A DNA stretch of 64,000 nt from a virus. Lineage: Duplodnaviria > Heunggongvirae > Uroviricota > Caudoviricetes. Within the stretch, counting starts at the first letter, position 1; each line of letters opens with the position of its first letter. The notes beneath the pieces are model-generated. The model was not told the DNA's origin and searched no databases. It saw only the letters and a list, made by a program, of their open reading frames with translations. Below, piece after piece: positions 10,883 through 52,362 of this stretch. The position numbers and the translations under genes are program-made. The stretch lies in the IMG/VR virus record IMGVR_UViG_3300044846_005772; one strand, written 5' to 3'.

Positions 10883-11467
10883 ATGAACTATACAAACAGC
10901 CGACTTATCTCAAACGATCCAACTAATTGGTATTGGTTTGAACATGGTTTTTCAAACGAAGAGATACAGCGAGTCATTGAATTTGCATCACATCTAGAAA
11001 AATCTTCTGGAAAATTGTTGAGCTCAGTTGATGCAATTGAATCATACCGAAAAAGTGAAATTTCCTGGATATTTAGAGATCATGTTACCAATTGGTTATA
11101 TGAAAAGATTATTGGCATGGCAAATGAAGCTAACGAAAATCAGTATGGATATATTATGCTTCCATCGTTTGAGTCAATTCAATATACTGAATATCATGAA
11201 GGTGGAGGCCACTACGATTTTCATATAGACGTTGGTCAAGGTGTTGCAGCTACTCGAAAATTAAGCATAACTGTCCAACTCTCAGATCCATCAGAATACG
11301 ATGGAGGAGATTTTGGAATATTGCGTGGAAGAAACGAGGAGATTTTGCCAAAAGGTAAAGGGACTGTTTTAGTATTTCCTTCATTCTTACTACATAGGGT
11401 TTCACCAGTAACTAGAGGGACGCGTAGGAGTTTAGTAATGTGGCTAGGTGGATGTAGCTATCGTTAA
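10883..11467 (+). CDS. 2OG-Fe(II) oxygenase superfamily protein
   Basis: HxD (FHIDVG), distal His (LLHRV) and RxS (RRSLVMW) arrangement. Confidence 0.65.
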   Translation: MNYTNSRLISNDPTNWYWFEHGFSNEEIQRVIEFASHLEKSSGKLLSSVDAIESYRKSEISWIFRDHVTNWLYEKIIGMANEANENQYGYIMLPSFESIQYTEYHEGGGHYDFHIDVGQGVAATRKLSITVQLSDPSEYDGGDFGILRGRNEEILPKGKGTVLVFPSFLLHRVSPVTRGTRRSLVMWLGGCSYR

Positions 11468-11841
11468 TCGTATAGAACTGAGAAAGCGCTAGTCGATCCA
11501 TCAATATTGATGTTCAACATAGCTCCAATTCTATGTGACTGTCCTAACTCAAATACTTGAGAAGAAGCTGTTATTCTTCTATTTGAACTTTCAGGAACAA
11601 ATGCAGTTATCTGATTATTTGCCTCTTCAGTAAACTGTTCAATATCGATCTGGTATTCAAACAATCTACCTTCGATATTCAATCCAAAATTAGGTTCTCC
11701 TAAAACGTCTCCCTTAGAAGTTAATAGAGTCATTTTAACTTGAGTAAGAATTGCTTCCAATGGATCATACACCTCGATCTGATCTGGTATGTATCTAGGA
11801 TCCTCTTCAGGACGCATATAGAAATCTCTAACGTTTGCCAT
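11464..11841 (-). CDS. hypothetical protein (125 aa)
   Basis: ORF, first gene of a tightly packed leftward block. Confidence 0.45.
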   Translation of the reverse strand: MANVRDFYMRPEEDPRYIPDQIEVYDPLEAILTQVKMTLLTSKGDVLGEPNFGLNIEGRLFEYQIDIEQFTEEANNQITAFVPESSNRRITASSQVFELGQSHRIGAMLNINIDGSTSAFSVLYD

Positions 11842-32619: not shown

Positions 32620-33105
32620 ATGAGAAGAACAATAACACCAGAATCAGAAGAACAAGAATCGGAAGATTATTTTAGATCGTACGCGACTGTTTTCCTAGCT
32701 GGCTCAATTGAAATGGGAGAAGCTGAGGACTGGCAAACGAAAGTCATCAATTCATTTGATGAGAAAGATGAAGTCACTTTCTTTAATCCTAGAAGAGATG
32801 CTTGGGATTCTTCGTGGGAACAAGCACAATCTAATCCACAGTTCAATCATCAAGTAAACTGGGAGTTGAATCATTTAGACTCATGTGATATTGTCTTTAT
32901 GAACTTTATTCCAGGAACAAAGAGCCCTATCTCTTTACTTGAATTGGGAGCATATGGTCATCATAATAAAATGATAGTGTGCTGCCCTGAAGGTTTCTGG
33001 AGAAAAGGAAACGTTGATATTTTCTGCACTAGACAAAACATCCAAGTGTTTACTGATCTTACTGCAGCAATTGGTGCTCTACGAACTAAACTTGAAACCA
33101 TTTAA
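32620..33105 (+). CDS. nucleoside 2-deoxyribosyltransferase-fold protein
   Basis: VFLAGSIEMG ... SLLELGAYGH pattern of the PF05014-like fold. Confidence 0.45.
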   Translation: MRRTITPESEEQESEDYFRSYATVFLAGSIEMGEAEDWQTKVINSFDEKDEVTFFNPRRDAWDSSWEQAQSNPQFNHQVNWELNHLDSCDIVFMNFIPGTKSPISLLELGAYGHHNKMIVCCPEGFWRKGNVDIFCTRQNIQVFTDLTAAIGALRTKLETI

Positions 33106-33109
33106 CTAG

Positions 33110-34630
33110 ATGAATCCTCTACTATTAACAGACGGCTACAAGACTGGCCATCACCAACAGTATCCTAAAGGCACGACTTTAGTGTATTCTAACTTCACAC
33201 CACGTTCAAACAAGTACGCTCCTAAGGGATGTGATGCAGTTGTAGTATTCGGACCTCAAATGGTTATGATGCAATTGGACGAAATGTTTCAAAGAGACTT
33301 TTTTGATCGACCTAAGGATCTGGTTTGCGGAGAAATGAAAAGAGAACTTTCAGCATATCTAGGTACAGATTATGATGTTAGCCACTTTGAGGCGTTGCAT
33401 GATTTAGGCTATCTTCCAATTGCAGTTAAAGCATTGCCGGAAGGTACTAAGGCACCAATTAAGGTTCCAGTGTTGACTATTTACAACACACATCCTGACT
33501 TCTATTGGATCACAAATTATCTTGAAACAATTCTTTCCAACTTGCTGTGGAAACCAATGACGTCAGCTACTATCGCCCATCAGTACAGAAAGGTATTGAC
33601 ATGTTGGATGGAAAAGACAGATAAAGAAAGAGCATGGTTTGTGGATTGGCAAGGGCATGACTTTTCAATGCGAGGCATGGACTCAGTCGAGGCAGTCGTT
33701 AGTTCAGGCTTAGGTCACCTAACTTCCTTTCTAGGTTCCGATTCTCTACCAGCTATTCATGGTGCTAGAAAGTTCTATGGAGCTAGCGAGTTTGTTGCAG
33801 GTTCAGTTCCAGCTACAGAGCATTCGGTGATGTGCGCAGGCGGTAAGGAAGACGAGGTTGAAACGTTCCGCAGATTGTTAGAGACATATCCGAAAGGAAT
33901 CCTTTCAGTAGTATCTGATACATGGGATCTTTGGAAAGTTTGTACCGAACATGTGGTTACTTTGAAAGAAGAAATTATGGCTCGTGATGGTAAGTTAGTT
34001 ATTCGCCCTGACTCAGGTGACCCAGTAGATATTTTATGTGGTTCTATTCGTTTTGATAATAAAGAAGAATACGAAACGGAAAAAGCTGATGGAACATTAA
34101 GTAAAGCAAATCCATCTGAAAAAGGAGTTATCGAATTACTTTGGGATGTATTTGGAGGAACAGTAAACGAACAAGGATACAAAGTTCTTGACTCACATAT
34201 TGGAGCTATTTACGGTGACTCAATCACAATTGACAGAGCAGATGAGATTTGCAGACGTTTAGAAGCAAAAGGATTCGCATCAACAAACGTAGTGTTAGGT
34301 ATCGGTTCATTCACTTACCAATACAATACTCGTGATACATTTGGGTTTGCAATGAAAGCCACTTACGTAGAAGTTAAACACCAAGTAGAATCAGGAATCC
34401 CAGTGTTTGCAATTGAAGGTCGTGAGATTTTTAAAGACCCGATCACTGATGATGGAACAAAGAAATCAGCAACTGGTCTGTTGTGTGTTGAGGAGTTAGA
34501 TGGTGAAATTAAGTTATACGATAAAGTATCTTGGAATACAGAAGACACTGGCGTACTTCAACTTATCTATAAAGACGGCCAGCAATATAACGTTACATCA
34601 TTAGAAGATATCCGAAAAAAATTAAGATAA
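33110..34630 (+). CDS. nadV: nicotinamide phosphoribosyltransferase (NAMPT/NadV) family protein; could equally be a NARP1 Namat
   Basis: 506 aa, NAMPT-like throughout; adjacent to a PRPP-synthetase homolog. Confidence 0.75.
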   Translation: MNPLLLTDGYKTGHHQQYPKGTTLVYSNFTPRSNKYAPKGCDAVVVFGPQMVMMQLDEMFQRDFFDRPKDLVCGEMKRELSAYLGTDYDVSHFEALHDLGYLPIAVKALPEGTKAPIKVPVLTIYNTHPDFYWITNYLETILSNLLWKPMTSATIAHQYRKVLTCWMEKTDKERAWFVDWQGHDFSMRGMDSVEAVVSSGLGHLTSFLGSDSLPAIHGARKFYGASEFVAGSVPATEHSVMCAGGKEDEVETFRRLLETYPKGILSVVSDTWDLWKVCTEHVVTLKEEIMARDGKLVIRPDSGDPVDILCGSIRFDNKEEYETEKADGTLSKANPSEKGVIELLWDVFGGTVNEQGYKVLDSHIGAIYGDSITIDRADEICRRLEAKGFASTNVVLGIGSFTYQYNTRDTFGFAMKATYVEVKHQVESGIPVFAIEGREIFKDPITDDGTKKSATGLLCVEELDGEIKLYDKVSWNTEDTGVLQLIYKDGQQYNVTSLEDIRKKLR

Positions 34631-34634
34631 TTAC

Positions 34635-35513
34635 ATGAGTCAATTAAATTTAGAATATCCTGAAAAATCAGATATTAAGTATAAGATCAATAGGTTTCCT
34701 GACGGCCAACAAAGCATCACCTTAAACACAACTTGGGGATACTTGGATGTTGAGGTTCAGATAGTAAGTAGACTCAAAACATTTAGGGATCTTGAATTAG
34801 TTATTTGCGCAACGGCTGCTTTAAGAAATATAGGTTACTCCAAAATTTCTCTGTATGTTCCCTACTTCTTGGGCGCTAGGTCAGATCGTCGATTTAATGA
34901 TTGGGAAGCAAACTACTTGAAGGAAGTAATCTGTCCTATTGTTAATTCTCAAAAGTACCATTCGGTTACTGTGATGGACCCTCATTCGGATGTGCTGGAA
35001 GCCTGCCTAGAAAACTATCGATTGATAGATAATATCAACTTAGTCAAGTTTGCTCTTACAGATATTGATAACCGAAATGATGCTCGTGATCGAATCGTCA
35101 TAGTATCGCCAGACGCTGGTGCGCTAAAGAAGATTTACAAGGTAGCTGAGCATTTCAAAATTAGCAACTTGATCACAGCATCTAAGCACAGGGATATTGC
35201 GACTGGTAAGATAACTGAAACTGTTGTGCCGGAGTTGGAAAAGTATTCTGATAACCACGCATTCGTTATCGTTGACGACATCTGTGATGGAGGCAGAACT
35301 TTTATTGAAGCCTCAAAGGTAATCAAGCAAGCACACCCTTCAGCAAAAGTATATGCAATTGTGACACATGGAATATTTAGTAATAGCTTCTTGGAATTGA
35401 GTAGACACTTTACTAAGATGTACTCAACTAATAGTTACTCAGATATTGATGTTGAAAGCCACAGCGACTATACAGTAAGTAAGGACTTCCTAATGCAATT
35501 CAATATATTCTAA
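34635..35513 (+). CDS. prs: ribose-phosphate pyrophosphokinase (PRPP synthetase) family protein; could be an ADPR-PP synthetase (Adps) of NARP1
   Basis: IVSPDAGALKK and PRPP-binding IVDDICDGGRTF motifs. Confidence 0.7.
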   Translation: MSQLNLEYPEKSDIKYKINRFPDGQQSITLNTTWGYLDVEVQIVSRLKTFRDLELVICATAALRNIGYSKISLYVPYFLGARSDRRFNDWEANYLKEVICPIVNSQKYHSVTVMDPHSDVLEACLENYRLIDNINLVKFALTDIDNRNDARDRIVIVSPDAGALKKIYKVAEHFKISNLITASKHRDIATGKITETVVPELEKYSDNHAFVIVDDICDGGRTFIEASKVIKQAHPSAKVYAIVTHGIFSNSFLELSRHFTKMYSTNSYSDIDVESHSDYTVSKDFLMQFNIF

Positions 35514-35766: not shown

Positions 35767-35791
35767 AAAGGGACCAGTAGGTCCCTTTTTA
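35767..35791. terminator. bidirectional rho-independent terminator
   Basis: gggacc-agta-ggtccc with A-run upstream and T-run downstream. Confidence 0.7.
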
Positions 35792-36103: not shown

Positions 36104-38158
36104 TTAGCACCAGTTATAGAATGTATAATCGTTAGGCATTGAGTAGTCTCTCACAAAGTTCTCGTCGCTTAAATAGTATGGAGTTCCATCTGGCGTCACT
36201 GTCAAGTAAGAGGTTGCGTCACCAGAGACCATAAAGAAACGGTCAGATACTAATCGATAAGAGACAACATCTTCAATCGGATATCCAGTATCAATTGAAT
36301 TCAAGCGTGCTCCATAAATATCATACACATCAATAAACCAATTCGTATTTTGCCAAATATGCATTACCATATTTGCAGATACGTATAGTCTGACGTATCC
36401 AATTGAGTATTCAAAAGCTTCTGACATTCCAGCAGGACTAAGTAGTCTTGCAGTGTTATCGTCAAATTCAAAATAAGTAACACCTGCAGTGTGACCATTT
36501 ATGTCTTTCCATTGGGCTGAAGAAGAATTGTTATTCCAAAAATACGAATCATGTATAACTTTAGTAACTGTTCCAGCAACGCTGTCTCCTCCAGTAGGAC
36601 AATAAAAGTGTAGAGTTCCGTTATCAATATCCGATAACCAAAAAGTATTCCAATTTACGTCATATTGAGCTGGAATTATTCCATTTACCGCAAGCTCAGT
36701 TGAGCCAGTCTCTCCATTTACAACTAAATAGCTACCCGTATTCAACACAAGTATTGTAACATCACCACACACCATAAGATTAATCCCTGCATAATCGGCG
36801 TACGCCATGATGTCTTCATATACTGGAGCAGCATCCTTTCTAAGGGTTAATAAGTCTACTGAAGTCGTACTTTCAGATGCATTTATTACTAACTGAGGAC
36901 ACGTGTTCTCAATATTGGCAGTTTCAAATCCAAATGTTTCGCCTTCAGCTAAAGAAGGACTCCACTCAACGAATTCAGTTTCTCCTCCAAATAAAGTGAT
37001 TGTCGTAAAAGCAGTGTACCTATCCATTTTTCCATCGTATGTGCTATTCGAGTAGAAAAGAAACATTAAATTTTCAAATCCATTTAATGAATTGAAATAA
37101 TTCTCCGTTGGATCTAATCGAGAATAATAGCTATCCCAAAATGGATAAACAGATCTATCAATTACGTTAGAAACGGCAAGCGTTCTTGCAAGATTATCGT
37201 ATGCGTAAATAACGCTCTCACTAGAACCATTAGTTAGCATAAAACCAAATTTAGATGTACCATATGAGAAAGAATTTAGGCCATCTGCGTCAGAGATTTC
37301 AGTTAAAGAGTAATCAGCAAACGTTCCGTCCAGTTGAATTACTCGAAGTTTGTAAAAATAGCCATTCTCGTCTTCAAAGAATAAGGGTATACAGTTAGAA
37401 GTTGGATGATTTCTACTGCTATGATGATAGTTGCCTGCATCTTCGAGAAGATCAGTAATGTCTATTAGATTTCCATTAGGTCTGGCTAGAAATACTCTCG
37501 TTTGAGAACCGTCATATACGCTGACATTAAGAGTACCGTCGGATGAAGTATCCCAGTTAAACTCTCCAGTACTCACGTCCTGTATTGAATTTTCAATAGA
37601 TCTGCTAAATACCTCTTCTCCCATCCACCAATAGAATTTGGTGACAGTTTCTCTAACTTGAAAAGAAAGACCTACTGCTTTTCCGTCTGAGCTGAATGTG
37701 CTGAGATTATCCTTCCATGGAATAAATTCAAGTAAATTTCCTCCAGCATCAACGAACGCAGCCCAGTTATAATAATCGCTATATCTTCCTCCAATTAGTA
37801 TTGTTCCTCCATTATGCAAGAGTCTAAAGTATAGATAGTCAGTGTCGACTGTTTCTTCTCCCAAATCAAGAATTTCACTAAATGCGAAATTCGAAGTATC
37901 TGTTGTTTTAGCTACTGTTATTCCAACATGGCCGTTTTCTTGAAGAAAGCCAGCATGAAAAATTACTGGAGCAAATGCAACAATCGATTTAGGATTTTTG
38001 GGTTTTCCTGAACCTACTCCGGCTGCAGCTGATGCGCTAGTAGCTCCTCGAGCTTCAAAGATCTTCTTAGAGATTAGCTGATTCATCATATCTTCTTCGA
38101 TACGCTTTCTAATCTCCTTCTGTTCAGGAGTCTCATGTCCCCAGTTAATAAATGACAT
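36104..38158 (-). CDS. tail fibre / receptor-binding protein, paralog 1
   Basis: N-terminal MSFINWGHETPEQKEIRK anchor shared with two other genes; Gly/Ser linker; 684 aa. Confidence 0.6.
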   Translation of the reverse strand: MSFINWGHETPEQKEIRKRIEEDMMNQLISKKIFEARGATSASAAAGVGSGKPKNPKSIVAFAPVIFHAGFLQENGHVGITVAKTTDTSNFAFSEILDLGEETVDTDYLYFRLLHNGGTILIGGRYSDYYNWAAFVDAGGNLLEFIPWKDNLSTFSSDGKAVGLSFQVRETVTKFYWWMGEEVFSRSIENSIQDVSTGEFNWDTSSDGTLNVSVYDGSQTRVFLARPNGNLIDITDLLEDAGNYHHSSRNHPTSNCIPLFFEDENGYFYKLRVIQLDGTFADYSLTEISDADGLNSFSYGTSKFGFMLTNGSSESVIYAYDNLARTLAVSNVIDRSVYPFWDSYYSRLDPTENYFNSLNGFENLMFLFYSNSTYDGKMDRYTAFTTITLFGGETEFVEWSPSLAEGETFGFETANIENTCPQLVINASESTTSVDLLTLRKDAAPVYEDIMAYADYAGINLMVCGDVTILVLNTGSYLVVNGETGSTELAVNGIIPAQYDVNWNTFWLSDIDNGTLHFYCPTGGDSVAGTVTKVIHDSYFWNNNSSSAQWKDINGHTAGVTYFEFDDNTARLLSPAGMSEAFEYSIGYVRLYVSANMVMHIWQNTNWFIDVYDIYGARLNSIDTGYPIEDVVSYRLVSDRFFMVSGDATSYLTVTPDGTPYYLSDENFVRDYSMPNDYTFYNWC

Positions 38159-38189
38159 AAAGTACTTTTATTTTAGTTATTTATTTAGA

Positions 38190-38861
38190 CTAAACTAGAT
38201 CAAATAGAATAATCTCTGCTTCTGAGCTCGTTACGATCTCTATCTTGCTCTCCTCAGTATAACTAAGACCATCTCCCTCAATCAGGGAAAGTCCATTTAC
38301 TGTTGCTTCACCTAGCACAACATACAAGTAATATCTACGCGAAGAGTCTAATTCAAAAGTAAAATCTTGAGTAAAGATTCCAGCAAGAAGTCTAGCGTCC
38401 TGCTTGATGGGAAGTTTTTCAGTAATATTGCAAAAACGATTTAACTTATCTTCCCTTGTAAATTGGTACCATGCATACTCAGATTCAGTTTCGGTGACAT
38501 TTGGCTGAATCCACAGTTGTAAGTATCTATTTTGTTCATCAGTTGAGTTTCCTTCAGTGTGCCATATGCTTTTTCCAGCGCTCATTCGTTGAACTGCGCC
38601 TGCTGGAATATCCATATTGTTTCCATGACTATCAGTATGTCTGCACTTCCCTTTAACTACGTATCCAAATATTTCCATGTTGTTATGTTCGTGCCATGGA
38701 ACATGACCATTTGGTTCAACTCGATCATCGTTAATGGTCTGAAGATGACCAAAATTCATGTAGGCAGGGTCATAATACCCTGGAAAGCTGAATGTTCTAT
38801 ATGAATTTATCCAACTTGCTCTAGGATTTCCTCTAGTGTGATGCGGTCTGTGTATTATCAT
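38190..38861 (-). CDS. pirin-like cupin protein
   Basis: HTRGNPRASW...NGHVPWHEHNNMEI...RHTDSHGN...MSAGKSIWHTE matches pirin HxH...E metal site and RHxDS signature. Confidence 0.7.
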   Translation of the reverse strand: MIIHRPHHTRGNPRASWINSYRTFSFPGYYDPAYMNFGHLQTINDDRVEPNGHVPWHEHNNMEIFGYVVKGKCRHTDSHGNNMDIPAGAVQRMSAGKSIWHTEGNSTDEQNRYLQLWIQPNVTETESEYAWYQFTREDKLNRFCNITEKLPIKQDARLLAGIFTQDFTFELDSSRRYYLYVVLGEATVNGLSLIEGDGLSYTEESKIEIVTSSEAEIILFDLV

Positions 38862-38868
38862 ACTTTGA

Positions 38869-39459
38869 TTAACACCAAGAGTTCTTATCGATTACTGGAG
38901 TATACAAGGTAAATTTAGCAGGAAACAAGAAGGTTCCACCTAATGGAGTTCCGGCAGTATCGTCATTTAGCATCCAATCTGGGTCAGATGGATCGATTGG
39001 TAAAACTCTAAATTTATTCAAATTTGAGTAATATGCGAATTTAGCTAGTCCGCTGCTTACTGCGCTACCCTCAGCCCAAACAACATTGTAGACATATCCA
39101 GTACTTCCGCTACTTGGGTGAATTGCCATTATGCTATCTTCAAGCTCCTGGGTAACACCAGTTCCTTCGTATGCCATGATAAGATTCTCGGATTCAGCTA
39201 CATCAAATCCGTAAGTGTCGCCTTGCTCTACTGGAGTTATTGTGTCCCAAGGAGATACTCCTGTGAATGAGGTAGGCGTTATGGTAAATGAAGGTGTAGC
39301 TGGTCCACCTGAACCTGCTCCACTTGCAGAAGCGCTAGAAACTCCAGACCTTGCTTCAAATACTTTTCTTAACATTAGCTGATGAGAATCATGCTCTTCC
39401 AACTTTTTACGAATTTCCTTTTGTTCAGGAGTCTCATCTCCCCAATTGATAAATGGCAT
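38869..39459 (-). CDS. short tail-fibre-like protein, paralog 2
   Basis: MPFINWGDETPEQKEIRK anchor. Confidence 0.55.
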   Translation of the reverse strand: MPFINWGDETPEQKEIRKKLEEHDSHQLMLRKVFEARSGVSSASASGAGSGGPATPSFTITPTSFTGVSPWDTITPVEQGDTYGFDVAESENLIMAYEGTGVTQELEDSIMAIHPSSGSTGYVYNVVWAEGSAVSSGLAKFAYYSNLNKFRVLPIDPSDPDWMLNDDTAGTPLGGTFLFPAKFTLYTPVIDKNSWC

Positions 39460-39475
39460 ATTACTTGTTTATTTT

Positions 39476-41209
39476 TTAAAATTCAGTTACTAAGAAATAT
39501 TTAGACACTTCGGAGTATTGACCAGAATTAGCATTCGCAAATACTCCAGTAGGCTTTCCAATATCTTTTGGACCGACTGCTATTATTTCCTTAGGAGTTC
39601 CGTCATTATCGATAACCCAGTTGGCTCCATTATAATATATGTAGACACTCTCTTCACCGTTTCCAAACCAGTCATACGACGCTGTCCAATAGTTAATATT
39701 AAATATTTTATCTGGTAGATTCGCGTCAGCCACAAATAATTGCCTGTCCTGGTCGTCGAACACTCTTAACTGGCCAGTCTTTGGTTTAGGATGTACTGTT
39801 GTTCCAGGAAGTACGGATCCGTCTAACACTGATTGGAATGCGCTAGTGTCGTCGGGTCCAACTACATAAATAACGTCTTGTGAATTCTGTAGTCTATTAG
39901 TAGTAAGATCAGCTTCTATGCGAAATGTCTGCTCTCCATATGTGTCATCTGGTGTCTCCGACCATGGTGAAACTGTGAAGTCATATGTATTATTTCCTGA
40001 GTCCGAAAGAACTAGTGTTATCGCCGGTGTCCACCCATCATTAGTTGAAGAGAGCTTTACGGTACTTCCGATTATTGAATCACCAGTAACCTTAAACTTA
40101 AAATATCCAGTGTATGGATCAGCTTCAATTATTGATACAATGTTGTCTGCTGGAGGCTTGACTCCGCCACCATCACCTGGATAAACATCAGCTGAATACG
40201 TTTCAAAAAGAGTATCGAATACTGCAACATCAGAAGTATCATCATATAACTTTTCAACAACATCTGCTATGAAATCAGTTGAACCTATTGTGTAATCAAC
40301 TAGAAGAATGCTCAATCTACTAGAAGTAGGTAAATTTTGAGAGACTAACTGTTTTATGGTGTTTGCTTCAACTTCTCCTGCTTTACGTAACGCAAAGTAT
40401 TCATTCAAGTCAACTTGACCTAGTGTAAGAGATAGAGCTAATGCTGTTCTGCTTGTTCCAGCAAACTCAATATCACTGTCCAGTATCGTATCATTCTCAA
40501 CGCCAGCTGACTCTAATAAATACTCTGCCTTCCGTATAGGAGTTATTAATGATTGGTATGCATCGGTCGGAACATATCCGTCTCTTTTTATTCGGTCAGA
40601 ATCTTCTTCGCTGAACTCATATTCTAACAATTCACTAAAAATATTAAGAGTGCTTTCCCACTCAGAATAATCTTTAAATGATGTGTCTGCTATTAAGTTT
40701 GGAGCAGATGACAGTATTGTCGTTATTTGATTTACGTGATTTACTGAAACATTTGAGCTCATTGGAGCAGGCGTGTATCCTAAATCAGCGCCTCCACCAA
40801 CTGCGTATATTGGAGCGTATCGCTTAATCAGATTCCCAGTAGAATAGTCATACAACACCCATTGAGGATTAAACTTAGTAAAGTTTGCTACGCCAGTAGA
40901 ATCAGTGGTTGCGTACTCTGTACCCAACTGAGACTCATCTAATACTATTGTATTGCCTTCGCTATTTACATACGAAGTATTTTGTTCCCAACCTATCTTT
41001 ACAACGGCTCCAGTTATAATACTTCCTTGAACAGTTACTCCGAAACTCCCCGGCCCTGCACCTGAAATTGAAGAAGCTGATTGCTCACTAATTTTTTGAG
41101 CTTCGAACATTTTTCTAGCCATCATTTGACGGATGGCTTCCTGCTCCTCAAATCTTCTTCTCATTTCCTTCTGTTCAGGAGTTTCATGTCCCCAATTGAT
41201 AAATGACAT
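39476..41209 (-). CDS. tail fibre / receptor-binding protein, paralog 3
   Basis: MSFINWGHETPEQKEMRR anchor; 577 aa. Confidence 0.6.
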   Translation of the reverse strand: MSFINWGHETPEQKEMRRRFEEQEAIRQMMARKMFEAQKISEQSASSISGAGPGSFGVTVQGSIITGAVVKIGWEQNTSYVNSEGNTIVLDESQLGTEYATTDSTGVANFTKFNPQWVLYDYSTGNLIKRYAPIYAVGGGADLGYTPAPMSSNVSVNHVNQITTILSSAPNLIADTSFKDYSEWESTLNIFSELLEYEFSEEDSDRIKRDGYVPTDAYQSLITPIRKAEYLLESAGVENDTILDSDIEFAGTSRTALALSLTLGQVDLNEYFALRKAGEVEANTIKQLVSQNLPTSSRLSILLVDYTIGSTDFIADVVEKLYDDTSDVAVFDTLFETYSADVYPGDGGGVKPPADNIVSIIEADPYTGYFKFKVTGDSIIGSTVKLSSTNDGWTPAITLVLSDSGNNTYDFTVSPWSETPDDTYGEQTFRIEADLTTNRLQNSQDVIYVVGPDDTSAFQSVLDGSVLPGTTVHPKPKTGQLRVFDDQDRQLFVADANLPDKIFNINYWTASYDWFGNGEESVYIYYNGANWVIDNDGTPKEIIAVGPKDIGKPTGVFANANSGQYSEVSKYFLVTEF

Positions 41210-41228: not shown

Positions 41229-41432
41229 TTATTTATTCGGTAGAGTTACGATAAGGCCCGCATCCCATATAAGAAAATTGAGCCCCATCACCATATTAGT
41301 TCCCCTAAACCCATTACGATTTAAAACAAATACTGGGCTTGGAATAGGCGTAATCTGATAAAAACTATCCTCAAAACTAAATGTTCGGTGTAAATACACA
41401 CTTAGTGTAAATCTCTTAAATATTTTGTTCAT
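41229..41432 (-). CDS. hypothetical protein (67 aa)
   Basis: ORF. Confidence 0.3.
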   Translation of the reverse strand: MNKIFKRFTLSVYLHRTFSFEDSFYQITPIPSPVFVLNRNGFRGTNMVMGLNFLIWDAGLIVTLPNK

Positions 41433-41456
41433 ATACTAGTATTTATATCAAAAGAA

Positions 41457-41480
41457 AGGCCGGAGTTTTCCGGCCTTTTA
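41457..41480 (-). terminator. rho-independent terminator
   Basis: ggccgga-gttt-tccggcc flanked by A and T runs. Confidence 0.65.
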
Positions 41481-43990: not shown

Positions 43991-44065
43991 TGGTAGGTCC
44001 ACCAGGAATCGAACCTGGAATAGAAGCTTAGAAGGCTACTGTTATATCCATTTAACTATGGACCC
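43991..44065 (-). tRNA. tRNA-Arg (anticodon TCT)
   Basis: Acceptor GGGTCCA/TGGACCT, T-arm CCAGG-TTCGATT-CCTGG, anticodon loop CTTCTAA, encoded CCA. One mismatch in the anticodon stem. Confidence 0.55.
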
Positions 44066-44073
44066 AAATAAGC

Positions 44074-44123
44074 AAAGGTCAGCTTCTCTATCCGTGTGGT
44101 ATTTCACGAGCTGACCTTTTAGT
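44074..44123. terminator. long-loop hairpin, possible terminator
   Basis: aaaggtcagc ... gctgaccttt inverted repeat. Confidence 0.4.
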
Positions 44124-44133
44124 TTAAATTATT

Positions 44134-44877
44134 TTAGGAAATTTTACCTAAAGTAAATTCTCCATTCTCGTAAACGAGATACTGTTTTTCCTCAAGAGCG
44201 TCTATGAAGTAATAGCGATTGCCTGTTGACTTTCCTTCTATGTCGATCTTACGTACACCGGTGTGTCCGGCTATTTGGATATGCTTCTCCTTTAGGAAGG
44301 TGTCCCGGTTCCCACTCATCAAGCTCGCAGGACGTATCCAGATGGGGGTTTGAGTTTTTGAATCTCCATAAGGATCCCAACCATTAAAGGTAAATTTAGC
44401 AGGCCTGTATTTCCAAAGGTCGTTCACGAAATCGGAGATGCTCTGCTCACCAGTCTCATCATACCCATTTTGAGTTACCAACCACGAATGACCGATTCCT
44501 GCATGCGAACAGATGATGTCGTCCAACTGATAGCACATTTGTAAATGGTGAGAGTTTTCCTCAAGCAACTGTCGTATTACTGGCGCAGCACCGTGCTGAT
44601 AACCCGAATAGGTCTCTCCGCCTGGATAGTAATGGTAATCGTGATTACCTATGAGCATGATAACTTGGGTCTTGCGTTGAGTGTCCGTACCTTCATCAGT
44701 AAATGAAGTCTCCTTGTACTCAATGATCTCCTTGAAATTATGTAGCTGTTCGGTCGTGCCTATGTCAAAGCTGTCAAAGTAGTCGCCGACGAAGACCACA
44801 TGATCCGCATTTTCCTTCTCCACAATCTCCTTCCAAATAGATCTGCCGTGGATATCGCCTATGAATATTGTTTTCAT
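44134..44877 (-). CDS. PPP-family Ser/Thr phosphatase / ApaH-like metallophosphoesterase
   Basis: GDIHGR, GDYFDSFDIG and GNHDYH motifs. Confidence 0.7.
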   Translation of the reverse strand: MKTIFIGDIHGRSIWKEIVEKENADHVVFVGDYFDSFDIGTTEQLHNFKEIIEYKETSFTDEGTDTQRKTQVIMLIGNHDYHYYPGGETYSGYQHGAAPVIRQLLEENSHHLQMCYQLDDIICSHAGIGHSWLVTQNGYDETGEQSISDFVNDLWKYRPAKFTFNGWDPYGDSKTQTPIWIRPASLMSGNRDTFLKEKHIQIAGHTGVRKIDIEGKSTGNRYYFIDALEEKQYLVYENGEFTLGKIS

Positions 44878-45104
44878 CTAGATTGATTATTTTTTATCCT
44901 AGCCCTCAGACCTTCCCAGTAACCCGACTCATGTCGGTACCTATGTACCGGCCCAAGTTCATCCGGAAAAGCGGTGAGCATGCGCGAGGAGTTTTGAGTG
45001 TCCGCTAACATGAAAGTGTTTACCAAGCTTGTGTGGAAGCTACCGGCCGTGCCGATGCTCCAATAGTAGAGTTCCCACTCCCATCTGTTTATTTCCTTAT
45101 CCAT
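44874..45104 (-). CDS. hypothetical protein
   Basis: ORF overlapping the upstream stop. Confidence 0.35.
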   Translation of the reverse strand: MDKEINRWEWELYYWSIGTAGSFHTSLVNTFMLADTQNSSRMLTAFPDELGPVHRYRHESGYWEGLRARIKNNQSR

Positions 45105-45303
45105 CGATTAATGCTGTTAAAAATACTCCAACATAGAACACAAAGAAGGCTGGGATCCAAGTAACTAAAAGTGCCAACATCTGAATGGCGTCATACTTTT
45201 GGAATGCAAAATAGATCGGAGACACAAAGATGCAGATGGCAGCTATCGAAAAGATCGAGATCGTGATCAGGGCCAGAACTCCTCTTAATTTTCTAGTTTT
45301 CAT
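45097..45303 (-). CDS. small membrane protein
   Basis: Two TM-like segments. Confidence 0.35.
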   Translation of the reverse strand: MKTRKLRGVLALITISIFSIAAICIFVSPIYFAFQKYDAIQMLALLVTWIPAFFVFYVGVFLTALIDG

Positions 45304-45344
45304 ATCAGTTTTATTTTTTCTATTATACTAAGATCCTTGGGAAT

Positions 45345-45629
45345 TTACTCCAGGATCTGGACTTTATTTTGGGTCTCAATCCAAACCTTAGCACCACAAC
45401 TTAGCGGTTTATCCGGAGAGTAGATTATCCTGCAGGCTTCCTTGCCATTCTCATCATACACTATTGCCTGGTGACCGTACTCATTTGACTTATATGTTTT
45501 ACAAGTAAGCACGGGTCGATTCTCCTCGTCCTTGGAGTTCGCCTTGATATTATGCTGATTAACGTGGATTATCGTTTTCATCGGGTGCATGATTAAAGTA
45601 TTGCGGCGTCCATTCGCTGTCCGGTTCAA
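45345..45629 (-). CDS. hypothetical protein
   Basis: ORF; overlaps the next ORF in another frame. Confidence 0.3.
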   Translation of the reverse strand: MNRTANGRRNTLIMHPMKTIIHVNQHNIKANSKDEENRPVLTCKTYKSNEYGHQAIVYDENGKEACRIIYSPDKPLSCGAKVWIETQNKVQILE

Positions 45630-45921
45630 GATCGCTGCCGATTGATGTTACGTGAGACCTGACGTCTCGACCGTTTTGGTTCAGGAGACGAATGTTATGC
45701 TTGATGGCGGCAAACGGCCTCCCTCCAACATGCACCAACTCAAATTCCACATTGGGTTCGGCTAGTATCCTGGCATCAAGGTTATCGAAGATCCTGTCGA
45801 GTTCAGCCAGGTCTGCCCTTTCCTGAGGATGTAGGTCCACGCAGAATGTGGATCCACTATCATCGACGTACGAGATCTCCCAACCTCTGCTCGGATGTTT
45901 TTGCATGGTGCCCTGCATCAA
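45559..45921 (-). CDS. hypothetical protein
   Basis: ORF. Confidence 0.35.
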   Translation of the reverse strand: MMQGTMQKHPSRGWEISYVDDSGSTFCVDLHPQERADLAELDRIFDNLDARILAEPNVEFELVHVGGRPFAAIKHNIRLLNQNGRDVRSHVTSIGSDLEPDSEWTPQYFNHAPDENDNPR

Positions 45922-46118
45922 ATATCCGTTTTGTTTCTAAAAATAAATTCCTTATGGTCTTCGTCCTTCATCGATGCTCCCTGCAGCCACTCATAAAATT
46001 CGTCAGCCGCCCGTAATACAGTTTTCGTACCCCCATGTATTCCCATAGTTCTCTTCGTCTCTTCCATGGCCATCTGCAGGGCCACTTGACGATTTGTGTA
46101 AAACTTAATGTTACTCAT
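45918..46118 (-). CDS. hypothetical protein
   Basis: ORF. Confidence 0.35.
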   Translation of the reverse strand: MSNIKFYTNRQVALQMAMEETKRTMGIHGGTKTVLRAADEFYEWLQGASMKDEDHKEFIFRNKTDI

Positions 46119-46404
46119 GTTGCTTTCTTTTTATATTATACTCCAGTATTTGAGAAGGATTTTACTACGGAGTAAATCAAAAAATTGTGCTCAAGATTGG
46201 ACTTGCACCAATACGTTCCTTCGAACTCGTTACCTTAGCGTCTACTATCGGGTACTACATGATTACCTCGCTTCCGCCACTTGAGCATATGTAAAACACA
46301 CTCTCAAGCATTCTACTTCCCGCCCCTACACAAATGCGTAGCACGAAATTGTATCTTACTTAGCCCGTCGCTCGCGGTATGGGTACTTGAGTTTATGTGT
46401 TTCG

Positions 46405-46482
46405 TACCCCCTGAGAGACTCGAACTCTCACCCGAAGACTAGATCCTAAGTCTAGCGCGTCTACCGATTCCGCCAAAGGGGC
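46405..46482 (-). tRNA. tRNA-Leu-like (anticodon TAG), class II D-arm
   Basis: GCGGAATCGGTAGACGC D-arm, anticodon arm CTAGA-CTTAGGA-TCTAG, T-arm GAGAG-TTCGAGT-CTCTC, acceptor GCCCCTT/AGGGGGT. The variable region is only ~9 nt. Confidence 0.45.
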
Positions 46483-46692
46483 ATGATGGAAAACTTGGCT
46501 ACCATACGCGTCGATATGGTCAAGAATTGATTGATGGTTGGTTCCCCATCACCTGATGCCGTGCACAGCAGAGCAGGATCTCCTACATAACAACCCGGGG
46601 CATGATTACTCTCCGTTAAGGTTGCGATCCTCTGAGAGCCGGGTTCTCTTTCAACGGTGCTAATCCGTCCTATGTTAGCTGTTTTCCATTTG

Positions 46693-46829
46693 TAGTCAGG
46701 ACAGGAATCGAACCTGCATAAGTGTTACTGTGCTTCGCACTCCATTTGGTTATTATCAGGCTTTGTGTGAGGTCGCATCTCGTGCTAAACTGTTTTACCC
46801 AAATGACGTTACCATTCCGCCACCTGACT
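46693..46829 (-). tRNA. tRNA-like element 1 (class II ends, 137 nt, aberrant core)
   Basis: 5' AGTCAGGTGGCGGAATGGTAACG and 3' CAGGTTCGATTCCTGTCCTGACTA; no canonical anticodon arm is foldable by eye. Confidence 0.3.
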
Positions 46830-46983
46830 ATTTGTTTACTTTATCATTCCAATTACAATGGCTACAATTTCTAACCATGCAATTATTCCAAAAAATATGT
46901 ATGGTAATCTAAAATCATCCCATGTAGGTTTTTTAAATAACAAAAGAACTTTTAATGCTTCAATCATAACATTGTTGTTTTAG

Positions 46984-47085
46984 TAGTCAGGACAGGATTC
47001 GAACCTGTATGAGATGGTCAAAGCTTTCGCTGCATCTTACGTGGAACTTTGCGGGATCCTGCGTCTACCATTCCGCCACCTGACT
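46984..47085 (-). tRNA. tRNA-like element 2 (102 nt)
   Basis: Same ends (GCGGAATGGTAGACGC D-arm, ACAGG-TTCGAAT-CCTGT T-arm). Candidate anticodon arm GGATC-CCGCAAA-GTTCC has a mismatch and C33. Confidence 0.3.
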
Positions 47086-47161
47086 ATGTTGTTTAGTGGG
47101 ACTCATACCACCATGCTTCATTGCCTTGTATCATGTTTTTTGTTTAAGTTAATTTGTTTAG

Positions 47162-47273
47162 TAGTCAGGACAGGATTCGAACCTGTAAATCTCCAAAATA
47201 AAACTATCTCGAGTTCATTTTATTTCTTAAGGAGTCCATTAGATGGAGCGTCTACCAGTTCCGCCACCTGACT
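47162..47273 (-). tRNA. tRNA-like element 3 (112 nt)
   Basis: Same ends; the core contains a TCCAT-CTA-ATGGA hairpin instead of an anticodon arm. Confidence 0.3.
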
Positions 47274-47279
47274 ATTGTT

Positions 47280-47552
47280 TTACTTACTTACGTAATCCAT
47301 CATCTCACGCATCTTAAGAATCAGCAATTCCATCTCATCCTTATTGAGATACATCCTTGAACTTCCAGTCTTGTCGTCTAACTCCTTGGTTTCCACGATA
47401 ATTCCATTGAACCCCTCGGTTGGATATACATCAACGTTCTGCTCTTCAGTTGCGATTACGACTTTGTGCCAAACTTTATTTTTCATAGCTCTATTTTTAT
47501 TAGTAGTCAGGACAGGATTCGAACCTGTAACCGTAGCAGAGACGGTGCACAT
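47280..47552 (-). CDS. hypothetical protein between tRNA-like elements
   Basis: ORF. Confidence 0.4.
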   Translation of the reverse strand: MCTVSATVTGSNPVLTTNKNRAMKNKVWHKVVIATEEQNVDVYPTEGFNGIIVETKELDDKTGSSRMYLNKDEMELLILKMREMMDYVSK

Positions 47553-47590
47553 CGGGAGGAAACAGCGTCTACCAATTCCGCCACCTGACT
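47504..47590 (-). tRNA. tRNA-like element 4 (87 nt, class II length; anticodon loop CTCCCGA)
   Basis: Segment lengths fit a class II tRNA exactly (GCGGAATTGGTAGACGC; variable arm ACCGT-CTCTGCT-ACGGT; discriminator A). The anticodon stem GTTTC/TGTGC pairs poorly. Confidence 0.4.
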
Positions 47591-49970: not shown

Positions 49971-51146
49971 TTACAGGTTAGCGTACTGTGCGAATTCCAA
50001 ATCGTATCCTGCACGGGTTCCCTTAGCGAATAGGGTGCCAGCGTCCTGCTTCAGCTCGGCCTTGCCGTTAAGTTCGAAGCCAGAGTTGTTTGATCCCAAG
50101 AAGGTAAGAGAGTTCACAACGTCCCAGATCGACATGCCGGTCTTGACGAAACTCTTCTGCTTCTCTCCCAATCGCATTGGGTCTTGGCCCTTCTGCACGA
50201 TGCGTGCCATTGTACGAGAGTAGCCAGGGAAGTACTGATCCGCGATCGAAGAGTTATAGATCTTCTTCAAATCAGGATCGATCTCGACCAACATGCTCTG
50301 CGACTTACGCATGGCGTTCTCCACTTCCAACAGGCTGGCCTTGGTCTCAACAGCTCGGTTCAAGGTGGAGCCGAATGCAGTCGGTACGAAGCCGGCTTTC
50401 TCCATGTCCCCGATCTTGTTAAGGAAGATCTTAATCTCCTCGGCACTGGTGCCTCCTAAGCGAAAGTTCTCGCTGAAGTTAAGTTCTCTGTTGCCGCCGA
50501 TCGCACCTTGTCCTAGGCTAACCCGTAGGCCATTAGAACATACTAATCGCTGGTTGTATGACTCAGCATAAGTATCACGGTTGGTCTGCACGATCGAGAA
50601 ACCGAACTTAAAGAACTCGTCCTTACCTGCCTGAGCGAAGCCAACTTCCTGGTTGTTCAAGAGGTTCACGCTCACGTTGTTGGTGTAGGGATCCACATCG
50701 ATCGTCTCAATCATCAGGCTCGGAGTGTCGTTCAACAGGCGCTCTGTGATATCGAAGACAGTATCGTTAGAGATCTTACGGAAGTTCTTGGGTGCGCAGA
50801 TATCAACGATCAACTTCGTGTTAGGATTAGCAATCAACATTACTTCGCCCTTGCCCTTCTGCGCACGGTAATCCTTGAGAGCGTTGATCAGGTGCACCGC
50901 GATCTTGTCATCGGAGTTCTTCATGAACTCGCTAGTAAAGCTACGGTTCAACTTCAGCATCGACGCCAAACGATGGAAGAAGGAATCGCTAACGCCCACA
51001 GGAACGCCGCCGATTTCGATCTTACCCTTACGTAGGGAGTCAGATGTCATGTTGATTGAGGAGATGGGCACGATCTTGGTGGCCTTCTCGGTACGGTTAA
51101 GCGTGTCTCGCATTTCCGTAAATTGTTCTTGAGTTACCTGTTTCAT
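49971..51146 (-). CDS. DUF932-like phage/plasmid protein (391 aa)
   Basis: Size and an RLVCSNG motif recalled for DUF932/TIGR03299; from memory only. Confidence 0.4.
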   Translation of the reverse strand: MKQVTQEQFTEMRDTLNRTEKATKIVPISSINMTSDSLRKGKIEIGGVPVGVSDSFFHRLASMLKLNRSFTSEFMKNSDDKIAVHLINALKDYRAQKGKGEVMLIANPNTKLIVDICAPKNFRKISNDTVFDITERLLNDTPSLMIETIDVDPYTNNVSVNLLNNQEVGFAQAGKDEFFKFGFSIVQTNRDTYAESYNQRLVCSNGLRVSLGQGAIGGNRELNFSENFRLGGTSAEEIKIFLNKIGDMEKAGFVPTAFGSTLNRAVETKASLLEVENAMRKSQSMLVEIDPDLKKIYNSSIADQYFPGYSRTMARIVQKGQDPMRLGEKQKSFVKTGMSIWDVVNSLTFLGSNNSGFELNGKAELKQDAGTLFAKGTRAGYDLEFAQYANL

Positions 51147-51219: not shown

Positions 51220-52362
51220 TCAAAGGGTTGCACTCTCTTCCTGCACGGCGGGCTGCTCGTCCTGCTGGGAATCTCCCTCTTGCAGGTCCTCTCCCAACTT
51301 AAAGATCTCCTCGAAGCGGCGGCCCATGTCAACTCGACGAGTCATCTCACTGTTCTCAATCTCTCTCATCTCCTCGGTCTCGTTGAAGCGGTCCACATCG
51401 TACACAACCTGACCTTCTTGTAAGAAGTAGTATAGACGCTTGCCGACCGCACTGCCGCCTCGACGGTTCTTGGAGAACTCGACGTAGCGTTTGCCTGATA
51501 GATCGAATCGGATCTCCAACATCGCTGTGGTTGCGTGCTTGAGGTAGGTTGAGCCGACATATGTACCACCCTTCGTCATGTGTTGGATGGCAAAGACAGC
51601 TGAACCCTTGGTCTCGGCAGAATCGATCATCAAGCCTGTCAACCAAGACTCGGCTCGGGTAGAAGTCCAATGGTGTACTTCCTTGATCTTCACCAACACG
51701 TCCTGATAGGAGTCCAAGATGATGATGTCATAGTCGCCGTTAAACGCCTGTTCCATGATACCCGTTACCTGACCTGACTTCACATAGTCCATCAACAACA
51801 GTGTAGGAACCTTCGCGATGCTTGGCGTCTTCTTGTAATAGAATAAGATATCGTTGCGTGTCATCTCGCTGGAGATGTACAACACTCTAGCATCGGGCTG
51901 CTGTTCCTGAATGCTGGCGATCATGTCCAACATTACGGTTGACTTACCGACACCGGACTCACCGATAACGATATTCACGGTGCCGCCATATGTGCCGCCG
52001 CCTTCCTCATGATCGGAGAACAGGTCGTCGATCTTCTTGCCAGTTCGATAGAGCTTGAAGTTGGGAAACTCCATGTCCTCTACTGTTACTACATTGAGAG
52101 TCAAAGGTTCTTGTGGGACTACGGAGTGAATGACCCCTGGTGCAGCTGCTGGCTCGAGACGCTCCTGGCCGATATGACCTTCTGTGACAATCTTCTTCAA
52201 GACTCCATTAAAGGATGAGTAGCTGATGTCCGCATCGGGCATGTGAGATACGATCTGAGCATGCAGATCCAACACCTTGCCTCTTGGCACTAGTCCATTG
52301 TGTACGTCGTTGAACCATTGACGGATAACCTGTTCCTTTTTACCACCTGTGATTTGTATCAT
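51220..52362 (-). CDS. RecA-fold ATPase (DnaB-C-terminal / AAA_25-like)
   Basis: Walker A GESGVGKST and Walker B IIILDSYQD. Confidence 0.55.
   Translation of the reverse strand: MIQITGGKKEQVIRQWFNDVHNGLVPRGKVLDLHAQIVSHMPDADISYSSFNGVLKKIVTEGHIGQERLEPAAAPGVIHSVVPQEPLTLNVVTVEDMEFPNFKLYRTGKKIDDLFSDHEEGGGTYGGTVNIVIGESGVGKSTVMLDMIASIQEQQPDARVLYISSEMTRNDILFYYKKTPSIAKVPTLLLMDYVKSGQVTGIMEQAFNGDYDIIILDSYQDVLVKIKEVHHWTSTRAESWLTGLMIDSAETKGSAVFAIQHMTKGGTYVGSTYLKHATTAMLEIRFDLSGKRYVEFSKNRRGGSAVGKRLYYFLQEGQVVYDVDRFNETEEMREIENSEMTRRVDMGRRFEEIFKLGEDLQEGDSQQDEQPAVQEESATL

Follow-up and report, generated by a model that had tools for sequence, protein, structure and literature searches.

A shared N-terminal module on unrelated proteins and a pirin gene linked to Trp-Cys C-termini in a large uncultured phage

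Three paralogous proteins and a pirin gene

The DNA analyzed here is a stretch of 64,000 nucleotides from a phage of the Caudoviricetes (IMG/VR record IMGVR_UViG_3300044846_005772), to which we refer as the window. Its minus strand encodes three proteins, P1, P2 and P3, which have in common a short N-terminal sequence that we call the N-module, together with a pirin-family protein whose gene lies between those of P2 and P1 (Table 1). An earlier note on this DNA described three paralogs of 684, 196 and 577 amino acids (aa) with shared N-termini, a linker and unrelated C-termini, and the list of open reading frames (ORFs), the alignment and a hidden Markov model (HMM) all agree with that description. 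P1 starts with MSFINWGHETPEQKEIRKRIEED, P2 with MPFINWGDETPEQKEIRKKLEEH and P3 with MSFINWGHETPEQKEMRRRFEEQ; the three align over about 37 residues, after which a Ser/Ala/Gly linker leads into C-terminal regions that are unrelated to each other. Exactly three copies of the module were found in a six-frame scan of the window, and the module HMM scores them at E 5e-32 to 5e-36, far above chance.

At the DNA level the module appears as a family of 87-nt repeats with 71-82% identity, each starting 16 nt before the ATG and including the shared motif AAAATAAA. The N-terminal DNA had been described as nearly identical and as homology for recombination. This was overstated, since identity over the first 59 coding nt is 78-83% and the longest exact run common to copies is 16-17 nt, which is weak as a substrate for recombination. 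The differences between the repeats fall mostly at third codon positions, which makes the similarity look like the outcome of selection on the peptide rather than of recent gene conversion.

Each of the three genes is preceded by an equivalent leader motif, while the pirin gene, which begins 7 nt past the P2 stop and is followed after 31 nt by P1, has neither an A-rich leader nor an upstream motif of its own. Considered as a late-promoter motif, TAAATAAA has 14 matches in the window where 8.8 are expected, which is no significant enrichment, and a sigma-70 scan gave only background level. The series ORF67-P3-P2-pirin-P1-ORF92 (41432-35808, minus) is bracketed by two terminator-like hairpins and is plausibly a single unit. 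No meaningful match came from megablast and tblastn searches of 50,697 phage records with the region, P1, P3 and the N-module consensus.

The N-module family

The family was searched for with a profile against 1.84 billion protein representatives and in IMG/VR contigs. A first profile search of a set of 5.8 billion proteins had returned one 76-aa match and missed the window's own proteins; full-length searches did recover them, so that the first miss reflects a limit of sensitivity and not absence. Among the 1.84 billion representatives the module is present in 95 clusters and starts at residue 1 in 94 of them, the exception being doubtful, and the proteins that carry it range from 42 to 1118 aa. 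IMG/VR has it at 41 loci on about 25 contigs, and one contig often carries several copies separated by tens of kb; 36 of the members are non-redundant. These contigs are related to the window (portal 64%, DNA polymerase 57% and NAMPT 78-87% identity). On this sequence evidence the N-module is rare and confined to one lineage of uncultured T4-like large phages, each with several paralogs.

The consensus reads M-S-F-I-N-W-G-x-E-[ST]-P-E-Q..R..hydrophobic-E-E..hydrophobic-[FY]-E-[QA], followed by an Ala/Ser-rich stretch and G-S-G(-G). The module closes with a conserved [IVLM][FY]E, whose Glu is at least 90% conserved in 66 representatives. In the AlphaFold2 (AF2) models, which are of low confidence, this part is a lone helix (residues 11-38 in P1 and 11-43 in P3) and disorder follows.

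Some members form a conserved minimal class of 64-82 aa, made of module, linker and an acidic aromatic C-terminal tail of ~20 aa, for example NKYVVNGYVEDGYFE (L004:12418-12612, L013:13875-14075, L033:9491-9697, L001:91-321, P0029, P0042, P0061, P0076 and P0083). The minimal gene of L033 sits between the capsid gene and DUF5856. We also considered that these proteins end in a Tyr-Phe-Glu resembling a protease product, and rejected this, as many of them end in Val, Phe, Tyr or Ser. On a contig of 527 bp, the gene that follows a 76-aa N-module ORF (L001:337-525) begins MITTRQFGEYAKGSRLTTAEMDENFNYLNS, an N-terminus which may resemble those of phage fibre proteins.

The C-terminal domains

The C-termini of the family fall into at least nine unrelated classes, each conserved as orthologs between genomes. 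P1 is 31% identical to P0003 and distantly related to a class of ~730 aa (P0004-6, 24-28%); P3 is related to P0008 (83%) and P0009 (49%). Pfam matches in these domains are limited to LRR, Laminin_G_3, DUF285, PKD and similar repeat or binding domains, and no catalytic domain was found in the Pfam scans of N-module proteins. The lectin domain matches the PHROG 'virion structural protein' and 'baseplate wedge' families. The isoelectric point of the C-domain is 4.0-4.9 in all members (4.2 in P1), and poly-Thr stalks are present in some of them.

The AF2 model of P1 is poor (predicted local distance difference test, pLDDT, of 48.7) and shows the N-terminal helix, a disordered linker and 4-stranded beta repeats. 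The PDB matches that Foldseek listed for this model are beta-propellers or proteins that contain them, with low TM-score, and the model makes a tandem beta-propeller the probable fold of the P1 C-domain. For P3 (pLDDT 47.3) there was no significant fold match, and matches to the head-binding part of the P22 tailspike (E 0.4-1.4) were discarded as noise.

In the earlier note all three proteins were called tail fibres. The corresponding explanation is that they are three classical tail fibres, which a shared N-terminal domain fixes to the baseplate, and that the pirin among them is a moron or auxiliary metabolic gene (AMG) with no relation to them. Pfam and PHROG searches with P1, P2 and P3 gave nothing, tail-fibre families included, and tblastn searches gave no match to such a family; the C-domain of P2 does have homologs on proteins with tail-fibre N-termini (see below). 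Neither the sequence architecture nor the low-confidence models of P1 and P3 show an elongated trimeric shaft (coiled coil, beta-helix or triple beta-spiral) or a trimerisation signature. The anchor itself is only ~38 aa long and is followed by a floppy linker. The N-module proteins have no match to a capsid-decoration family in Pfam or PHROG either. Our conclusion is that the C-termini are not fibre shafts; they are globular, acidic domains of binding types such as beta-propeller, LRR, lectin and PKD.

Gene neighbourhood in relatives and exchange of modules

In relatives of the window phage the commonest neighbours of N-module genes are a Peptidase_S77 (gp21-type) prohead protease (Peptidase_S77 1.4e-10, phrog_207 3.9e-34; outside the window itself) and a Gp23 major capsid protein. 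The same operon was found in 7 relatives, where a 336-aa ORF is followed by the protease, the capsid protein, DUF5856 and the N-module gene, and then by convergent topoisomerase II genes. This conserved slot after the capsid gene, and not in a tail module, argues against a tail-module origin and makes a head-associated role plausible. Together with the globular C-termini, it leaves the label 'tail fibre' unproven; the observation behind the label is real, apart from the claim on DNA identity. One locus can be counted in favour of tail fibres: in L009 the N-module gene adjoins the portal gene and converges on a homolog of the window ORF 11464-11841, tentatively read as gp25-like. N-module genes also recur at other places, close to an M28 peptidase or, as in the window, close to NAMPT.

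The class of C-terminus in the post-capsid slot differs between phages (173, 200/201, 297, 303/309 or 68 aa), which indicates cassette turnover at a fixed site. A change of arrangement is also seen in the closest relative, L043 from Logan, where the order is Metallophos, 101 aa, pirin, P1 ortholog, 93 aa, P3 ortholog, PRPP synthetase and NAMPT: P3 lies on opposite sides of the pirin-P1 block in the two phages, and P2 is absent from L043. Comparison of the locus among relatives thus bears out cassette exchange. The earlier proposal that modules are swapped onto a common attachment domain gains from the transferable module, from the varying class in the post-capsid slot and from the chimeric P2 described below; the DNA homology proposed as its substrate is weak. 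Over residues 8-45, N-modules of the same genome with different C-classes have a mean identity of 0.58 (n=30), and orthologs in different genomes a mean of 0.52 and a median of 0.45 (n=31); in the extreme case a pair is 89% identical within one genome while its orthologs are at 34%. This likeness within genomes fits either recombination inside the module or co-evolution with one docking partner.

The head genes next to the module raise another explanation, which is the main rival to our own: the N-module may be a capsid-targeting peptide that binds the scaffolding core, so that its proteins enter the prohead, and that the T4-type prohead protease then cuts off after the conserved hydrophobic-Phe-Glu, leaving internal or ejected proteins. 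In T4 the conserved capsid-targeting sequence (CTS) alone is common to otherwise diverse internal proteins (PMC3012670). The N-terminal propeptides of the giant-phage ejection paralogs gp53 and gp54 of SPN3US are identical and undergo cleavage after Glu, T4 Alt is processed at ITE and LTE, and T4-type prohead proteases are Glu-specific (PMC5694885). The N-module resembles these cases as a peptide at the extreme N-terminus of unrelated proteins, its lineage has the gp21-type protease with an N-module gene in the same operon, and the Glu of its closing motif is highly conserved. The small acidic internal peptides of T4 derive from gp67 and gp68, and the minimal members with their acidic tails recall such peptides. 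The Gp23-type capsid proteins of the relatives (L018:7853-9532 and orthologs) align with the T4 gp23 propeptide; they have no Glu at the T4 cleavage position and carry a conserved TP[IVL]FE[NQS] ~12 residues upstream, which resembles the module-closing motif. Its presence in the capsid propeptide can be counted in favour of capsid targeting; however, a motif of three residues is weak, and the same propeptide contains several other hydrophobic-x-Glu triplets. The cargo also speaks against this explanation, as it is made up of binding folds of the extracellular type (LRR, ConA-like lectin, PKD, beta-propeller) and includes neither enzymes nor recognisable inhibitors, some members have poly-Thr stalk linkers, and the proteins reach 1118 aa and are uniformly very acidic, unlike the small basic internal proteins (IPs) of T4. 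In addition, the domain of P2 is the C-terminal domain of tail-fibre-type proteins, and no sequence match to T4 CTS or IP families was found in Pfam or PHROG. Because of the extracellular-type folds (including a fibre-tip domain), the stalks and the large, uniformly acidic proteins, we rank capsid targeting lower and regard it as unlikely.

A third explanation takes the N-module as a leader or localisation signal, for example of the double-glycine type that a peptidase processes, on intracellular or exported effectors that are not part of the virion. The module does close with a conserved GSG(G) behind an Ala-rich stretch, the minimal members look superficially like leader-plus-core peptides, and a secreted-type S8 subtilase adjoins the cluster. 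However, the syntenic locus L043 lacks the subtilase, neither a transporter nor a C39 peptidase was seen, the cargo proteins reach 1118 aa and placement in a capsid operon better fits a structural role, so that this explanation is very improbable.

The pirin

The identification of ORF 38190-38861 as a pirin-family cupin is confirmed by Pfam (Pirin PF02678, 1.9e-25; Pirin_C_2 PF17954, 2.6e-16), the two matches giving a bicupin architecture. Residues 2-222 align with residues 2-228 of E. coli YhhW (PDB 6uts/1tq5, quercetin 2,3-dioxygenase / YhhW; E 4e-38). H57, H59, H101 and E103 align with the YhhW metal ligands and are invariant in 84 of 84 phage copies. The likeness to YhhW thus covers the full-length bicupin and the 3-His-1-Glu metal site; identity is ~35%, however, the phage proteins form a clade of their own with an extra Cys144, invariant in all 84 and unconserved in YhhW, and the partner is a virion-type protein and not a metabolic operon. 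Judged by its sequence, the protein is a YhhW-subtype member of the family that may have quercetinase or other dioxygenase activity.

The window pirin is 77% identical to that of L043 and 75% to that of L045, a small IMG/VR contig described below, while P1 and P3 of the window are at 31% and 49% to their L043 counterparts. In the phage collection, tblastn matches to the pirin were only bacterial-looking, namely Salmonella chromosome contigs and 'Acinetobacter phage' assemblies with yhhW annotations, and the phage pirin clade was not found in 185,579 cellular genomes.

The WC domain and its linkage to the pirin

The C-terminal part of P2, which ends in Trp-Cys and which we call the WC domain, is found next to pirins in other phages. 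In L045 the gene order is terminase, a 218-aa ORF, pirin and portal; the 218-aa protein has no N-module, is 36% identical (E 1e-19) to P2 residues 57-196 and ends ...HWWC. A metagenome scan with three phage pirins gave 193 loci at 67-98% identity, and 80 of these, on contigs of up to 348 kb, were retained. Together with L045, they contain 57 WC-domain ORFs. Trp-Cys is the C-terminus of 55 of these ORFs, and in 44 cases the pirin is the very next gene downstream on the same strand, at a distance of -25 to +12 nt. Complete ORFs ending in WC number 58 of 1107 in the pirin loci, against ~0.15 expected by chance. For the WC domain, identity is 27-49%.

The reverse search in IMG/VR, starting from the WC domain, found a pirin downstream in 23 of 23 Cys-terminated loci with enough downstream DNA, often behind an array of two or three WC genes, and in neither of the two loci whose WC homologs end ...NYW or ...EWS. 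The P1 family varies in the same direction: its members end NWC or VWC where a pirin is adjacent (window and L043), whereas P0004-6 end AWYY, AWYTID and AWYNG, and in L005, the one homolog of this class with flanking DNA, no pirin lies within ~10 kb. The pirin loci have few other genes in common with the window, and the cassette therefore moves between phage backbones. We also considered a three-gene cassette that would include the 92-aa ORF behind P1, and rejected it, as the match to the 76-aa ORFs behind the pirins of L082-85 is limited to the first 12 residues.

Some of the WC proteins resemble tail fibres. The N-terminus of the L106 WC protein matches the PHROG tail fiber and tail spike families (3.6e-11), and residues 45-171 of that of L076 are 41% identical to a protein of Clostridium phage phiCT453A that is annotated as tail fiber; both this WC protein and the L076 pirin have fibre-like genes around them. 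These observations, in which the P2 domain is C-terminal on proteins with tail-fibre N-termini, would also be expected if P1-P3 were classical tail fibres, and the NAD-salvage AMGs next door in the window could suggest that the pirin is one more gene of that kind. A moron, however, would hardly be fixed downstream of Cys-terminated proteins across unrelated backbones or vary together with the terminal Cys. We thus consider three classical baseplate fibres with an unrelated pirin improbable. Of the two roles proposed earlier for the pirin, enzymatic tail accessory or moron, the accessory one agrees with the strong gene linkage, and a random moron does not.

Other C-termini were seen as well. 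In L098, L099 and L101 the ORF upstream of the pirin (632-643 aa) ends ...C-P-x-C-[GA]-C (CGC or CAC), another C-terminal Cys. Many WC proteins of 160-190 aa in other freshwater phages start with a Gly-rich sequence common to them, such as MSITIEGGIDIGGG or MGITIEGGISIGGN (L126, L137-L139, L141, L146, L147, L150, L100-L125), and they occur in arrays of two or three before one pirin; they may be a second, unrelated shared-anchor system.

The window phage and the surrounding genes

As judged from its gene content, the window is part of a large uncultured phage with morphogenesis genes of the T4 type. Its gp20-type portal protein (ORF 7651-9354, phrog_213) has as best tblastn relatives metagenomic huge phages (LR756500, 40% identity), Lak phages and Tenacibaculum phage PTm1, and a DNA polymerase, a primase and PhoH are also encoded. 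Contigs of 26.7 and 82.7 kb from a JGI metagenome encode proteins of the window as well, and N-module genes lie near an NAD-salvage block in the relatives L006, L016 and L021 as well.

Downstream of the portal gene, 10883-11467 (plus) encodes a homolog of PKHD-type 2-oxoglutarate/Fe(II) hydroxylases (PiuC, E 1.3e-10), and ORF 9403-9804 has, by eye only, a resemblance to SET domains. A gp25-like reading of ORF 11464-11841 was not confirmed by a PDB sequence search. In the tRNA cluster, two further Rfam tRNA-like matches at 46693-46829 (137 nt) and 46984-47085 (102 nt) were not called by ARAGORN and may be intron-containing or atypical tRNAs. The freshwater-1 RNA in the same cluster, together with the lake-type sample names of related contigs, suggests a freshwater origin of the phage.

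GC content is 0.30-0.40 up to ~44 kb and 0.41-0.53 after it, with a peak of 0.535 at 48-50 kb. The high-GC part has genes in common with L027, L029 and L041 (for example 49971-51146 at 58-61% and 51220-52362 at 67%), and it is therefore phage DNA and not a host assembly chimera.

Table 1. Positions of the P1-P3 genes, the pirin gene and other features of the window
Feature	Position	Strand	Description and basis
P1, 684 aa	36104-38158	minus	N-module (aa 1-38), Ser/Ala/Gly linker, large acidic all-beta domain; ends ...YNWC
P2, 196 aa	38869-39459	minus	N-module, linker, WC domain; ends ...KNSWC
P3, 577 aa	39476-41209	minus	N-module, linker, beta, helical, then beta domains; non-Cys end
N-module of P1, codons 1-38	38045-38158	minus	Alignment and HMM
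N-module of P2, codons 1-38	39346-39459	minus	Alignment and HMM
N-module of P3, codons 1-39	41093-41209	minus	Alignment and HMM
WC domain of P2, aa 62-196, ~135 aa	38872-39276	minus	HMM E 1.8e-41; ends Trp-Cys
YhhW-type pirin (bicupin), 223 aa	38190-38861	minus	Pfam and PDB matches
A-rich leader with TAAATAAA / AAAATAAA before P1	38159-38187	minus	Equivalent motifs before P2 and P3
Equivalent leader motif before P2	39460-39475	minus	
Equivalent leader motif before P3	41210-41238	minus	
92-aa ORF after P1	35808-36086	minus	Also behind the P1 ortholog in L043 (40% identity)
67-aa ORF heading the unit	41229-41432	minus	Also a called gene in the JGI copy
Terminator-like hairpin after subtilase gene, upstream boundary	41455-41478	minus	10 pairs, 6 GC, T-rich tail
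Terminator-like hairpin after 92-aa ORF, downstream boundary	35767-35788	minus	9 pairs, 5 GC
NAD-salvage block: nucleoside deoxyribosyltransferase-like (Nuc_deoxyri_tr2), NAMPT, PRPP-synthetase-like	32620-35513	plus	Pfam/PHROG
S8 subtilase, 745 aa	41498-43735	minus	Signal-peptide-like N-terminus; directly upstream of cluster
tRNA cluster (Arg-TCT, Leu-TAG, Arg-CCG)	43991-47590	minus	ARAGORN
Rfam 'freshwater-1' small RNA	46526-46587	minus	In the tRNA cluster; score 72.1 against a gathering score of 72

Discussion

In our reading P1-P3 are adhesins that the virion displays, perhaps on its head, by means of a common docking peptide. The N-terminal 38-45 residues would tether interchangeable acidic globular ligand-binding domains to one site on the particle, by means of an invariant SFINWG tip, a TPEQ helix cap, an amphipathic helix that ends in hydrophobic-Phe-Glu and a Ser/Ala/Gly hinge. 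As for the docking site, which we infer, the head is favoured because the N-module gene of the relatives comes directly after the prohead protease and the major capsid protein; the proteins would then act like a Hoc- or pb10-like decoration or a head fibre, with the tail or baseplate as the alternative. P2 would be a chimera of the docking peptide and the WC domain, which in many freshwater phages is the C-terminal domain of tail-fibre-type proteins, and this horizontally mobile fibre-tip domain would have brought its pirin along.

The pirin would be a dedicated partner of Trp-Cys-ended proteins, here P2 upstream and P1 downstream. Most likely it is a metal-dependent enzyme or a metallochaperone that oxidatively modifies, binds or matures the Trp-Cys terminus; an enzyme or chaperone fits its high conservation, set against the divergence of the WC domains, better than a variable adhesin does. 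There are several candidate chemistries: thiol dioxygenation, as in the cupin enzymes CDO, ADO and PCO; indole 2,3-dioxygenation, analogous to the ring cleavage of quercetin; and capture of the terminus by a metal or a disulfide. The pirin might oxidise the thiol, cleave or cross-link the indole, or hold the terminus by its metal or Cys144 and so become the distal tip itself, and the outcome would be a receptor-binding tip that is matured by an enzyme or bridged by a metal.

Taken as a whole, the explanation by modular binding proteins displayed on the virion through a docking peptide, with P2 as a chimera and the pirin as partner of the Trp-Cys proteins, is one that we hold with moderate confidence. 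Several points weigh against it. The presence of the N-module proteins in the virion is itself something that we infer, and Pfam, PHROG and tblastn searches gave the module no homolog with known structure or function. In the window the flanks of P1-P3 are NAD-salvage genes, the S8 subtilase and tRNAs, and not structural genes. The closing hydrophobic-Phe-Glu fits the cleavage rule for Glu (PMC5694885), by which the module could instead serve capsid targeting and then be cut off. Both AF2 models, that of P1 and that of P3, are of low confidence, and in profile searches the WC domain has neither a Pfam family nor a PDB relative. On the side of the pirin, the gene is not directly preceded by a Cys-terminated ORF in 36 of 83 loci, and P1 has no homology to the WC domain, so that its Trp-Cys end is weaker evidence.

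Among known systems, the IPI, IPII and IPIII proteins of T4 with their CTS and gp53/gp54 of SPN3US are alike in that a short conserved N-terminal peptide is placed on unrelated, rapidly exchanged proteins in phages with head genes of the gp20/gp21/gp23 type (PMC3012670, PMC5694885). They differ in the length of the peptide, 10-15 aa against 38-45 aa plus a linker here, and in their cargo, which is small and basic where that of the N-module is made of large acidic binding domains; there is no sequence similarity between the two.

Among capsid decoration proteins, T4 Hoc and T5 pb10 combine a part that binds the capsid with a displayed domain. The likeness lies in the anchor, the linker and the exposed binding or Ig-like domain, and in a gene next to that of the major capsid protein, as in the 7 relatives and not for the three window genes; on the other hand there is no homology to Hoc or pb10 and no Pfam match, the many paralogs here would compete for one site, and the capsid location is the one suggested by gene order. 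Branched receptor-binding protein (RBP) systems, of the Klebsiella KP32 type and the CBA120/G7C type, have secondary RBPs that dock via a short conserved N-terminal peptide. These share with the N-module family the use of one short anchor on several different receptor-binding proteins per genome; theirs, however, are trimeric beta-helix spikes encoded in tail modules, whereas here we find globular domains on flexible linkers that are encoded elsewhere.

For the pirin, a parallel is found in the pairs of a tail fibre and a downstream accessory gene, such as T4 gp37-gp38 and lambda Stf-Tfa. In both cases a small conserved gene lies right behind the fibre-tip gene and is apparently translationally coupled to it, the gaps here being 0-12 nt. 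The accessory protein here is a metal-binding pirin bicupin that bears no resemblance to Tfa or gp38 and that tracks a C-terminal Trp-Cys. No relevant paper came up in literature searches that combined pirin or cupin with phage tail fibre, and the pirin/Trp-Cys cassette appears to be undescribed so far. We tentatively suggest that this is a mobile cassette in freshwater phages of several unrelated backbones, in which a pirin metalloenzyme acts on the Trp-Cys of fibre-tip or adhesin domains, and that in the lineage of the window it was grafted onto a universal docking peptide that displays mixed adhesins, possibly on the capsid.

The N-module family is a new case of a known principle, that of a shared N-terminal anchor on diverse virion proteins, and the pirin/Trp-Cys cassette is the more interesting of the two results. 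If the proposed explanation is true, one short docking peptide could carry any binding domain and would be a natural display tag, which gives a starting point for studying how the adhesion apparatus of large uncultured freshwater phages is built and diversified. The pirin, whose cellular roles are debated, would be linked to a defined substrate signature, a C-terminal Trp-Cys on virion-type proteins. If the pirin modifies the tips of fibres or caps them, it would represent a tail-fibre accessory of a new kind, and this could alter how receptor-binding proteins are predicted in metagenomic phages.

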